From NCBI GenBank assembly GCA_000004695.1, contig CM000151.3, positions 5,792,001 to 5,856,000 on the forward strand: 64,000 bases of DNA. The letters run 5' to 3'. Below the pieces are notes generated by a model that was not told where the DNA came from, ran no database searches, and was given only the letters and a program-made list of their open reading frames with translations. Positions 36,810 to 43,178 of this stretch are shown here, one piece after another (position 1 is the first letter of the stretch; each line of letters begins with the position of its first letter). The position numbers and the translations under genes are program-made. The DNA comes from Dictyostelium discoideum. Its lineage: Eukaryota.

Positions 36810-39800
36810 ATGGCAGCAACACTTGTAGTAGTTGACAGTGGTCTAGTTGATATACGAAAAAGAGTTGGTGAAATATGTCTAAAACATCTTTTAAAGCCAA
36901 CTTTAAATACTCAGAGTTATTGGGAAACATTTATAAAAAATACATTCATAAATGGTGGTGTTTTTAGACATACTATTAATACTCCTTCAAATAATATTGA
37001 CCAACAACAACAACAACCTCATCAACATCAACATCAACAACAACAAAATCTTCAATCTAAAACTTTTGGTATGTATCCTCTCTTATTTTTTTTTATATTT
37101 TTTTTATATTTTTTTTTTTTCCTCACTAAAAATTACACATATAAAGGTTTTTTTTTTTTTTTTTTTTTTTTTTTTTTTTTTTTTAAAATTGGTGTGGTTT
37201 TTTTTTTTTCCACCACATGACATCATCAATAATTTTATTTTACATATTAACTTTTTTTTAAAAATATTAGAATTATATTCATATAGTTTAGCAAGATATT
37301 TTTACTATATATTTGGATCATCAGGTATAAATGATATTTCATTTTCATTTTGTGATTATTCAATTGATAGGATGGATGCCAATGTATTTTTATTTAATTC
37401 AGAGAAAGCAAACATTGTTATTGTGTTTCAATCAAATTTACAGGTATTTTCATAATATTTTTAAAAAAAAAAAAAATTGGATATTTATTGAAAAGAAGGA
37501 TTAACATTGGATTTTTTTTTATTTTTTTTTTTTTTTATTTTTTTATTTTTTTTATTTTAATACTATTTAGGTTAAATTAGAAGGTATTATTAGAGTTGTA
37601 TTTTCAGAGGAATTAAAAGTTATTTCATTTCATTTCGAATCACAATCATTTCAAGAGTTTATATCAAAGGATTACCTTAATCAATTATTTCAATCATTTT
37701 TTCAGCGTCAACAACCATTTTTTATTAATGATCATAACCAATCTTTAGAAAATGATAAAAACAATAGTAGTAGTAGTAATATAGATCATTCAATGGATAA
37801 TATAGATTTATCAGTTGATAATAGTGATGCAAGCACTAGTGTTACTACTTTAAACAATAATAATAGTAGTATGATCAGTAATGATAGTGACATTATAATG
37901 GTGGAGCAGCAACAACAACAACAAGAACAACAACAACAAGAACAACAACAACAACAACAACAACAACAACAACAACAACAACAACAACAACAACAACAAC
38001 AACAACAACAACAACAACAACAACAACAACAACAACAACAAGAAGTTAGTATTACAAAGGAATATGAATTAAGTGAAGTTGAAGATGTAAAGATTGAACA
38101 AACAGATCAACAAATTGAACCAATAAAATCCTCAATAGAGGCGTTGGAAACAAAAGAGACAGCAAAAACAAAAGAGACAGCGGAAACAGCAGAAACAACA
38201 GAAACAACAGAAACAACAGAGACAGCAGAAACAAAAGAGACAGCAGGAACTACAGAAACAACTACAACCACCACAATAACAGAAACAGCAGCAATAGTAG
38301 TGGAGCAAACAGTAGAACCAAATCAAGAAATAACTGTAAAACAAGAAAAAGAAGAAGAGATTCAACAATCTAATCAATTGTCATTAGAAGATAGTGATAA
38401 AAATGAAATTAAAAGCAACAATAGTAATATTAATAGAGATGATGACGATGATATTATATTACCACAACAAGAAACACAATCATCATCATCATTAGACATC
38501 AACAAAACTGATTTGGGTTTTGATAATAATAATAATAATAATAATAAAAATAGTAATAACAATAAAAACAATGATATCATAGAAAGCACTATTCAGACAA
38601 GTAGTATACCTGATATTAATAGTAATGATTCAACAACAACACCAACACTAACGCTAACATCACCACCAACAACAGCATTTACAACATCAAATGAACTTGA
38701 TCTCAGTAATACTACTACTACCACTACCACTACCACTACTATTTCATCAACTGATATATTAGATAACACAACCAAAATAAAAACATCTGAAACAACTATT
38801 GAATGTATAGATAAAATAAATAACAATGACAACACCAACATCAACACCAACATAACCATCACCAACATCAACACCAACACCAACATAACCATCACCAACA
38901 CTCAAACAGAGTTAATAGTTGAATCAAATAAGGAATCTGAACCACCACCACCACCTCTAAATAATGATGAGAAACCAACCACTACACCAACTACACCAAT
39001 AAATAATCAATCAAATGAAATTAACAAATTAGAGAATAAAGAAAAATTAGAGGATAATATTGTATCAAAAGAAAAAATCATTGTTTCATCAGAGGAAAGT
39101 ATATTAACTGCAACGGCAACAATAAATGATAAAATCACTACAGATGAAAATATCACAACCCCAACCACAATAACAACAGCATCTGCAACAGCAGAAGAAA
39201 AAGAAGATTCAGAAACAATTTTAGAAGAATCAATAAAACCAAAGGATCATATTATGGAGGAAACTGATTCTAAAACAGATAATTGTAATGATATATCAAT
39301 GGAAGACGCTAATAGTAATAATAATAGTAATAACAATAATGATAATGATAATGAAAATAATAATAATAATAATAATAATAATAATAATAATAATAATAAT
39401 AATAATAATAATAATAATAATAATAATAATAATAATAATAATAATAATAATAATAATAATAATAATAATAATAATAATGAAAAAAGTGAAAATGAAAATG
39501 AACAATCGAAACAAGACACAAAAAGTGAAAGTAATAACGGTACAAATAAAATGAATGGAGTAGATCATTCTTTTATTGATAATAATGAAAAAGATAATAG
39601 GAAATTGACAGAAGAGGAAGTTGCATTAGAGAATACTGAACAAGATATTAATATTTGTGATAATCAACCACCACAAGAAAAAGAACAAGAAAAAGAAGAA
39701 GAAAAAGAGGGAGAAAAAGAAAAAGAAAAAGAAGAAGAAAAAGAAGAAAAAAAGAAAGAGGTTCAAAAAGAAGGCGAAATTTTAAATGTAAAAGAAGAGA

Positions 39801-42800
39801 ATACAGAGGAAAAAACTCTACAACTTGAAATTAAAAAAATTCAAGAGGAAAAAGTTTCTAAAAAAATGGAAACTATTCAGGAGGAAATGGTTGAAAAAGA
39901 TTTTGAAGATATTATTGAAAAAGAAGAAAAACAAATACTAACAACTCAACAAGTTTCAAAAGAAAATGAAAATGAAAATGAAAATGAAAAAGTTGTTGAA
40001 TCAATAATAATTAAAAAAGAAATTGAAATTGAAAATGAAAATGAAAATGAAAATAAAAATAAAAATGAAAATGAAACAACTTTTGAAAAAGTAGATATAA
40101 ATAAAGAAAATGAAGAAAGTAAAGAAAATAAAGAAATTGTAATTGAAACTGAAAAATCAAAAGAAATTGTAATTGAAAAAGAAGAAACAAAATTAGAGGT
40201 GGATGTAAAGAAAAATGATGTGGAATCAATTGCAAAGGATGATTCCAATAATATCAATTCAACGACAATTCAAGACAATGAAGAATTTGAAATTGTAATT
40301 GCACCACCATCAACAACAACAACTCCACCACAAATTTCACAGCGTCAAGAAGAGCCAATGGTTTTAGAAAATGATAAATCTGAAACTAATGTAGATAATA
40401 ATAATAATAATAATAATAATAATAATAATAATAATAATAATAATAATAATAATAATAATAATAATAATAATAATAATAATAATAATAATAATAATAATAA
40501 TAATAATAATAATAATAATAATAATAATAATAATAATAATAATAATAATAATAATAGTAATAGCAATAGTAATAATAGTAATAATAAAAATCCTATAGCT
40601 TCAGGTGATATGGCAATTGAGGTAATGGGAGAAAAAGAGTCATTATTATCATCATCAAATATCGTTAATACAATTGGAGGTGGTATACCAACACCAATAG
40701 TCGATACAGATATTGTAATGAATGGATGTGATGAGAATGATATCATAGATGTAATATTAACAGAAGACGGTCAACAGCAACAAGAACAATATGATTATCA
40801 AAATTCAACCATTTTAGTACCAGTAGTTGTAAATCAAACTCCAACAATGTCAAATGAAATTTTATATGTAAATAGTGAAGTACTAATTGAAGACCCTCAA
40901 ATAACAGCAACAGCAACAGCAACAACAACAACAACTACAACTACAACAACATCAACACCAAATTTACAATCAAATTTACAATCAAATTTACAATCAAATT
41001 TACAATCAAATTTACAATCAAATTTACAACAAAATTTACAACAAAATTTACAACCAATTTTACAAACACAACCAAATCCACAAACTATACAACAAACTAC
41101 TTTTATATATCAATTTTTAAATAATAACAATGGTGGTAATAATAATAATAATATTAATAATAATAATAATAATAATAATAATAATAATAATAATAATAAT
41201 AATAATAATAATAATAATAATAATAATAATAATGATAATGGAAATGGGTTAAAAAGAAAAGGGTATTTTGAAATGGAAAGTGTTCAATCTCATTTTTCAT
41301 TACCAGAATCAAATATTAATGAACATGGTATTCCAACTAAAGTGATGAGATATTATGAACTACTTGATGTATTTAATGAACTAAGTAATTTAATGGCCTA
41401 CACAATTCAAAATAAAGTTCCCTTAAGAAATTGTATGCAATCATTTTTAACTCACTATTCGAAACCTGAAAATATTCAACAACTACAATCTGGTATTATC
41501 CCTAATAATTTAAATAGTAATAATAATAATATTGATAATAATTTTAATAATAATTTTAATAATATTGGTAATAATATTAATATTAATAATAATAATAATA
41601 ATTTTAATAATATTGGTAATAATATAAATAATAATAATAATAATAATAATAATAATAATAATAATAATAATAATAATAATAATAATAATAATAATAATAA
41701 TAATAATAATAATTATAATAATTATAATAATAATAATAATAATAATAATAATAATAATTATAATAATAATAATAATAATAATAGTAATAATAACATTAAT
41801 AATAATAGTAATACAGCGATACCAACAACAACGACAACACCAGCCCAAACAACTACTACAACTACTACAGCAGCAGCAGCAACACCAAATTCATCTAAAA
41901 TAACTAAACAACCATCATTCCCAGTACCCTCTTCAACAACAACTTCAACTTCAAGTGGTAATAAAAAATCAAGTAAATCTGTACAAAAATCACAAGAAAC
42001 CACCACAACAACAACAACAACAAAAGGAACTAGGGGAAAGAGAAAATCCTCAACTTCTACAACAACAACAACACCAACACAAACACCGACACCGACACCA
42101 ACACCAACACCAACACCAGCACCAACACCAACACCAACACCAACAACCACTACTGATTCTTCTGATACCACTTCAAATACACCAGCAACCACCACAACTT
42201 CATCATCAAAATCAAAATCAAAAATCAAAATCATCATCATCATCATCAACATCAACACAAGAAGAGGTAGAACCTAAGAAATCAAAAGGTAAAAGAAAAA
42301 CCAATTCCTCTTCTTCATCAATTCCAACTACAGCAATAACACCAGCTACAAATACAGTTACACCAACTGCTTCACCATCACCATCACTTTCATTACCTTC
42401 ACCATCTTTAAATACAAGTAATTCATCAATTGTTGACACAAATGTTAATGTTAATGGCACAACTACAGCCATGCCAACAACAACAGCAGCAGCAACAACA
42501 ACTACAACAACAGCGGCAGCAATTACACCATCAAATCCATTAAATTCAAGTGGAGGAAATGTATTTATAAACACAAATGGTTTGACAATGTCGCCAATTG
42601 TAAATGCATTAATTCAACCACCTCAACCGTCTCAATCACCACCATTATCAATACCATCACCAACTCAATCAATGTTGGTACCAACATCATTTTTAACAAA
42701 CCCTCAAACAAATGAACCTTCATCACAATCACAACAGCCACAACAACAGCTACAACAACAACAACAACAACAACAACAACAACAACAACAACAACAACAA

Positions 42801-43178
42801 CAACAACAACAGCAACAACCACCACAACCACCACAACCACCACAACAACAACAATCATCATCGTTCTTTGAAGGTACCCAACCAAATGAACATGTAAATA
42901 CTTCACCAAGTCATCAAGTATCTCATCATCAATTTACATCACCACATCATCAACATTCAAGCTTTTTAAATGGAGCACTCTTTTTAAATTCACCAAGTAG
43001 TAATGGTATCAATGGAAGTCTTTCATCACAACTAACATTGGGTGACCCTAATGCTGAACTCGATAAATTTTTATCTTTAGATAATGATCATTTAAGTTTA
43101 GATCATTTTCCTGCTCAACTGAGTCCAACTTTAGATTCTTCACTTCGTCAACATCACTATAAAAAATCTTCAACATAA
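36810..43178 (+). CDS. very large low-complexity protein (~1950 aa) with a non-repetitive ~190-aa N-terminal domain; exons 36810..37068, 37271..37443, 37571..43178, with an apparent +1 frameshift near 42221..42225
   Basis: Exon 1 is MAATLVVVDSGLVDIRKRVGEICLKHLL…SKTF, followed by GTATGT (37069). An AG at 37269/70 starts exon 2 (…ELYSYSLARYFYYIFGSSGINDISFSFCDYSIDRMDANVFLFNSEKANIVIVFQSNLQ), which ends at GTATTT (37444). An AG at 37569/70 starts exon 3, which runs into the 1494-aa ORF. That ORF contains poly-Q, poly-N, (ETAETT)n, (NLQS)6, (PT)n, and Glu/Lys-rich stretches. The C-terminal 300 aa lie in frame 0 (ORF 41955..43178) after an A5 run. Confidence 0.55.

Follow-up and report, generated by a model that had tools for sequence, protein, structure and literature searches.

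The DNA analysed here is a 64,000-nucleotide (64-kb) stretch of the Dictyostelium discoideum genome (contig CM000151.3, positions 5,792,001 to 5,856,000), called the window below and numbered from its first letter. On the plus strand, 36810..43178 is one gene of three exons, separated by AT-rich introns with canonical GT..AG ends (202 and 127 nucleotides, nt, in length), that encodes a member of the LIM_bind (Ldb/Chip/SEUSS, PF01803) family and whose reading frame changes near its 3' end at a run of five A's (A5). Up to that run the gene is made up as follows, with frames given as position modulo 3.

36810..37068, plus strand: exon 1, 259 nt, ending in phase 1; its ATG is the first codon past an in-frame stop
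37069..37270, plus strand: intron 1, 202 nt, GTATGT..TTAG, 85% AT, phase 1
37271..37443, plus strand: exon 2, supported by the LIM_bind match and the alignment of homologues
37444..37570, plus strand: intron 2, 127 nt, GTATTT..TTAG, 90% AT, phase 0
37571..42224, plus strand: frame 2 portion of exon 3; the open frame is 37571..42277, and the codon-usage score favours frame 2 to about 42210

The three-exon structure was directly evident, and the exon number, intron lengths and phases (1 and 0) proposed in a first-pass annotation of this DNA were confirmed by the splice signals and by LIM_bind homology across the junctions. Thus, a single Pfam LIM_bind match crosses both junctions uninterrupted and the residues at the junctions fit conserved motifs. 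At junction 1, the split codon (G before the intron and AA after it) supplies the Glu of a motif, K-x-[FY]-E-[LI]....L-x-R-[YF]-[FY], conserved in an alignment with nine relatives, and at junction 2 the sequence ..SNLQ before and VKLEG.. after the intron aligns with ..SVQVHLDG.. of an orthologue from Synstelium polycarpum, at a conserved V-Q-V-x-L-x-G. Use of an alternative in-frame acceptor at 37291 would remove part of the first conserved motif (K-x-[FY]-E-[LI]). As is usual for dictyostelid nuclear DNA, intergenic DNA and introns in this region are 85–92% A+T, with about 90% AT 5' of exon 1, and long arrays of (AAT)n and (CAA)n occur in the coding sequence.

The frame change and the sequence beyond it comprise four features.

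42205..42233, plus strand: hexamer array (TCAAAA)4, encoding SKSKSKSK, with one base extra (Tandem Repeats Finder: period 6, 4.7 copies, 8% indels)
42220..42224, plus strand: A5 run in the third array unit, one A above the hexamer register; point of the +1 frame change
42275..42277, plus strand: TAA stop of the gene as written, ending a 1712-residue product
42225..43178, plus strand: C-terminal 317 codons plus TAA, frame 0, 954 nt; stop-free, codon-biased and of exon-like GC content

Frame 2 stays open between 37571 and its TAA at 42275..42277, as does frame 0 between 41904 and a TAA at 43176..43178. Both ends, 42277 and 43178, had been given correctly in the first-pass annotation, as had both of the peptides quoted there; the length of about 1950 amino acids (aa) that it assigned to the protein was not upheld, since the gene read as written encodes 1712 aa, ending in ...SKSKSKIKIIIIIININTRRGRT, and with one A removed encodes 2012 aa, with its stop at 43178.

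The exact site of the frame change was directly evident. The hexamer array reads TCAAAA TCAAAA TCAAAAA TCAAAA, with a single indel detected by Tandem Repeats Finder, and the A5 run previously suspected is indeed the change point, its coordinates being 42220..42224 rather than 42221..42225. Removal of one A yields a continuous peptide, SKSKSKSKSSSSSSTSTQEEVEPKKSKGKRK..., and the frame-0 peptide downstream of 42225 includes ...TNSSSSSIPTTAITPATN.... Frame 2 beyond the A5 run gives IKIIIIIININTRRGRT and then the stop, with six ATC codons in succession (poly-Ile). ATC is a minor Ile codon here (55 ATC vs 341 ATT), and runs of at least five Ile were absent from ten control open reading frames (ORFs) of the window. 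The same bases read in frame 0 are (TCA)6, TCA being the commonest Ser codon. A codon-usage log-odds model trained on ten other ORFs in the window and applied in a change-point analysis with 60-nt bins placed the likeliest frame switch at 42221–42224, the likelihood being flat over 42188–42230. Frame 2 was ahead in every bin to about 42210, and frame 0 was ahead, with a positive score, in every bin from 42210 to 43170. Three overlapping minus-strand ORFs in the same region (41758..42258, 42218..42574 and 42565..42909) have poly-Val/Gly translations and coding-like scores. These were rejected as genes, as they are antisense shadows of T/P/S-rich plus-strand codons and change frame at the same place.

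The singularity of this site was evident from a survey of all 64 kb for pairs of coding-like open frames that share a strand, differ in frame and meet or overlap. Thus, 42220..42224 was the only coding-to-coding frame change in the window that lacked an intron-like AT-rich segment; all others adjoin a segment of at least 90% AT, whereas the maximum at the A5 site was 73%. These figures bear on the possibility that a hidden intron of length 3n+1 restores the frame, for which the zone where both frames are open offers 51 GT..AG pairs of fitting length. None of the 51, however, exceeds 70% AT, compared with 85% and 90% for the real introns of the gene, none has a good donor or acceptor context, and each would remove sequence with a strong codon signature. 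With every other frame change in the window beside AT-rich DNA, we give a hidden intron next to no credence.

The tail that follows the shift is real coding sequence with an intact coding signature. Over its 317 codons, frame 0 contains no stops compared with 18 in each of the other frames; a stop-free tail would arise by chance with a probability of about 1e-8, given the composition, and no open frame arose in 20000 shuffles. Third-position A+T was 0.91 in the tail and 0.89 in the body of exon 3, and GC content stayed at 27–48% through to 43178, past the stop of the gene as written, and was then about 10%. The tail contains KKSKGKRK, a polyQ/PQ tract and an acidic-hydrophobic end motif, DPNAELDKFLSLDNDHLSLDHF (43044..43109). 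In Pfam, neither any part of the LIM_bind profile nor another specific family matched it, the only hit, to TFIIA, being sub-threshold (24.6 bits vs a cut-off of 36.2) and compositional. The proposal that one continuous low-complexity ORF is broken by a single extra A thus held up, in view of the stop-free coding tail, the change-point and the hexamer array with its one indel. Since the tail is intact, the extra A is either absent from the organism or very recent.

The same properties of the tail speak to the possibility that two genes, or the remains of an old truncation, are present, with the Ldb-like gene ending at 42277 and the frame-0 ORF being either independent (first ATG at 42471, 235 aa) or a dead relic. 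A frame-0 ATG does occur at 42471, but no AT-rich intergenic or promoter segment separates it from 42277, the GC content of this interval being 32–42% vs about 10% in real intergenic DNA. Moreover, the frame-0 coding score is positive over 42210–42470, ahead of the ATG, and a dead relic would be expected to have acquired stops by now, at odds with the probability of about 1e-8 for its being stop-free. Because 42277–42471 contains no DNA resembling a 3' untranslated region or a promoter and the coding signal lies upstream of the ATG, an independent downstream gene and an old truncation were both ruled out as highly improbable.

Programmed recoding at the A5 run was considered as well. The extra A would then be real, and low-level +1 recoding at A-AAA-AUC, whether by ribosomal frameshifting or by transcriptional slippage of the polymerase, would yield a short, tail-less form of 1712 aa and a long form of 2012 aa. 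Lys-tRNA on the P-site codon AAA could move from 42221–42223 to 42222–42224 with perfect re-pairing in the +1 frame, and a perfect inverted repeat of 9 bp, AAGAAGAGG / CCTCTTCTT, follows at 42259..42267 / 42307..42315 (-11.4 kcal/mol, RNA fold z = -3.1). The A-site codon, however, is ordinary rather than slow or rare, AUC being in normal use, and Ser is encoded most often by UCA, the codon in the +1 frame. The stem, which is the sole one found, is weak, and the distance of about 35 nt between its start and the slip site is too great for action at the mRNA entry channel, given the established spacing of frameshift stimulators; five A's are far below the run length needed for efficient polymerase slippage. 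The inverted repeat is probably a chance match. Furthermore, the extra base merely disrupts an otherwise regular hexamer array. The site thus combines possible re-pairing with features that do not resemble those of a programmed +1 frameshift site, and recoding, ribosomal or transcriptional, was judged very unlikely. If true, it would constitute a regulated isoform switch of an Ldb-type co-regulator in a dictyostelid nuclear gene.

On balance, we infer that the extra A is probably a base-call or assembly error and that the true product would be the full-length protein of 2012 aa. The surplus A in the third unit of (TCAAAA)4 puts the last 317 codons of the deposited sequence out of frame, and the organism would carry A4 at this position. 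Single-base miscounts at homopolymers are a common consensus error. In a re-sequencing study of D. discoideum, errors in the reference genome were explicitly named among the origins of shared variant calls (PMC3466296). A genuine insertion of 1 nt in this one gene is also rare a priori, because in a D. discoideum mutation accumulation study spontaneous indels arose at the very low rate of 4.9e-11 per site per generation and deletions were 4.5 times as frequent as insertions (PMC7466956).

Several observations weigh against a sequence error. Five A's make a short homopolymer, and the coding sequence reads without trouble through 37 other runs of this length. The window is otherwise clean, and since the A5 site is the sole intron-less coding-to-coding frame change in 64 kb, errors are not a general feature of the assembly. 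An identical signature would be left by a real mutation of very recent date, and no reads, cDNA, other strain or close orthologue were retrieved from protein databases, exact look-ups or metagenome scans. Thus, word-index protein searches with the tail including polyQ, with a non-repetitive 107-aa part of the tail and with the N-terminal domain gave no matches, the first search probably having been swamped by polyQ/polyT words. Exact look-ups of the 1712-aa and 2012-aa models, of the plain ORF 37793..42274 and of seven other window ORFs found none of them in the collection. Metagenome scans with an exact 35-mer beside the site and with peptide patterns from the tail yielded no relative, and literature searches found neither a specific study of Dictyostelium Ldb or LIM_bind proteins nor a stated error rate for the reference.

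A genuine and very recent frameshift or polymorphism in the sequenced strain, which would leave a 1712-aa protein without the last 300 aa, was regarded as a possible but lesser candidate. The sequence as given does carry A5, and the lack of any other such defect in the window argues for a good consensus. In D. discoideum, moreover, indels in simple repeats occur mainly in A:T homopolymer runs, and many indels fall in coding regions (PMC7466956). A truncated protein might also be tolerated because all recognisable conserved modules lie upstream of the break, the 1712-aa form retaining the dimerisation domain, the LCCD and the first basic cluster described below. Such an event would nonetheless have to be extremely young, as the 954-nt tail is undecayed (no stop, full codon bias, exon-like GC content), and it would have to be of a kind, insertion, whose measured rate is very low and 4.5 times below that of deletion (PMC7466956). 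The two causes named in the first-pass annotation, an indel error and a truncating polymorphism, are thus those that fit, whereas a hidden intron, a separate gene and programmed recoding were tested and do not.

The frame break is an annotation matter and not new biology. Its value is chiefly for annotation, since a literal reading drops the last 300 residues or prompts a spurious second gene model. If the extra A were real in a widely used laboratory strain, that strain would carry a truncated allele of a conserved transcription co-regulator, which would be relevant to work on gene regulation and development in it.

Identification of the gene as an Ldb/Chip/SEUSS-type member, together with that of a second conserved piece, the LCCD, goes beyond what had been noted for this DNA before. 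Family membership was directly evident from matches to Pfam LIM_bind, and the features of the encoded protein are as follows (NLS, nuclear localisation signal).

36897..37774, plus strand: Ldb-type dimerisation domain, aa 30–212, crossing both introns; Pfam LIM_bind PF01803, expectation value (E) 3.5e-25, profile positions 15–173
37775..41284, plus strand: low-complexity insert of 1170 aa (polyQ, polyN, T/E/K-rich), open and codon-biased, without Pfam family
41285..41416, plus strand: LCCD-like helices, presumed site for an SSDP/LUFS-type partner, aa 1383–1426; LIM_bind positions 190–233, E 3.7e-8
42023..42046, plus strand: basic cluster KGTRGKRK, ahead of the shift, read directly; NLS-like, with a putative NLS role
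42276..42299, plus strand: basic cluster KKSKGKRK, after the shift, read directly in frame 0; NLS-like

The N-terminal and LCCD parts scored 89.4 and 33.6 bits, respectively, the gathering score being 24.2. Searching the PDB with the single sequence gave no matches, and a profile built from the retrieved relatives matched LDB1/LDB2 structures (8hib_V and 6tyd_V, E 7.6e-21) across the dimerisation domain and the LCCD, the LCCD segment aligning with LDB1 residues 164–219. A mini-construct in which aa 1–215 were joined to aa 1370–1460 was modelled with AlphaFold2, with a mean predicted local distance difference test score of 74 and with values of 87–95 for the dimerisation domain and 77–89 for the LCCD helices. 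The best Foldseek match of this model was 6TYD chain V (human LDB1 with SSBP2; E 3.2e-13, target-normalised template-modelling score 0.73, 294 columns); the top 12 were all LDB1/LDB2 dimerisation domains (E 3e-13 to 6e-9), with NTF2-like enzymes next. The N-terminal domain is thus predicted to adopt the NTF2-like dimerisation fold. Profile matching likewise indicates that LCCD helices are present downstream of it at an atypical spacing, with 1170 aa between. This spacer is the most unusual feature of the locus, and the splitting of the dimerisation domain from the LCCD is a minor curiosity. Upstream of the shift the basic motif reads RGKRK, so a basic motif does recur on both sides of the shift as had been claimed, but exact KGKRK occurs on the downstream side only.

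Near-perfect and very long (CAA)n/(AAT)n arrays were noted in the coding sequence at 37905..38040, 39350..39480, 40398..40575, 41150..41235, 41600..41780 and 42740..42855, with some stretches at 0% GC over 150 nt. Arrays of this kind tend to collapse or expand during assembly and are liable to length polymorphism, so that the figure of 2012 aa can be trusted no further than the arrays themselves.

An exhaustive HMMER search of 1.84 billion representative proteins retrieved only the nine relatives. The top one was the Synstelium polycarpum protein (EukProt EP01133_P011955; P0001), which is 468 aa long and was matched with E 4e-17 and 39% identity; its LCCD was 46% identical to the one here (BLASTP, E 4e-8). 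In both proteins a basic cluster and S/T/P-rich sequence come after the dimerisation domain and LCCD; they differ in overall length and in the linker between dimerisation domain and LCCD, which is about 55 aa in Synstelium as opposed to 1170 aa here. Similarity between the Synstelium tail and the peptide after the shift was not significant, 415 of 2000 shuffles scoring equally well or better (p about 0.2), so this orthologue was of no help with the frameshift. For the region ahead of the shift the alignment was slightly better, 64 of 2000 shuffles reaching its score. The Synstelium protein has an odd hydrophobic C-terminus at residues of about 400–468 (VVVLYLVPSPVHPIHISK...VVVVAAAAERNH...), which looks like intron read-through or a frame error in that gene model.

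Five of the other relatives (P0004–P0007 and P0009) read as fungal-type. SEUSS, Adn1, Mfg1 and PtaB are co-regulators of this kind in fungi and plants; the retrieved relatives themselves are unnamed. In common with members of the fungal and plant type, the protein has Q-rich flanks, a dimerisation domain and LCCD, a K/R cluster (NLS-like) after the LCCD and no metazoan LIM-interaction domain (LID), while the fungal-type relatives differ in having linkers of about 50–70 aa and are only 23–27% identical. K/R clusters after the LCCD were noted in both the fungal and the Synstelium homologues. In architecture the protein is thus closer to the fungal and plant members of LIM_bind than to the metazoan ones. 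Metazoan LDB1/LDB2/Chip (PDB 6TYD, 8HIB and 6S9S) also have an NTF2-like dimerisation domain followed by a two-helix LCCD. In the animal proteins, however, the LCCD comes after a conserved linker of 9 residues, as opposed to 1170 here, and packs on the dimerisation domain together with SSDP (PMC6800368). The present protein is also about five times longer than metazoan LDB and mostly of low complexity. Because no LID is detectable in its tail, the gene was placed in LIM_bind in the broad sense rather than among metazoan-type LDBs. A modest but concrete point for structural studies of Ldb-SSDP complexes is that the dimerisation domain and LCCD tolerate in this protein a low-complexity spacer of 1170 residues where animals have 9 conserved ones.

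The predicted layout, from the N-terminus, is an NTF2-like dimerisation domain, the 1170-aa insert, the LCCD helices, two basic NLS-like clusters and a Q/S/T/P-rich tail. By analogy with LDB1, the product would be a nuclear co-regulator of about 2012 aa in which the dimerisation domain self-associates and the LCCD recruits a LUFS/SSDP-type partner, thereby bridging DNA-bound factors. Import into the nucleus may proceed through KGTRGKRK, KKSKGKRK or both.

Neighbouring genes were noted at 43472..46483 (plus strand), 46829..49680 (plus strand), 30886..31974 (minus strand), 17296..21651 (plus strand) and 25353..26897 (plus strand). One product encoded in the neighbourhood is a class II alanyl-tRNA synthetase, whose gene probably has a short 5' exon. 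Two others, an FNIP-repeat protein and an FNIP-repeat protein kinase, speak for a Dictyostelium origin, FNIP repeats being greatly expanded in that genus. Further neighbours encode an AIG1-type GTPase, an RNA polymerase largest subunit and an EGF-repeat protein.

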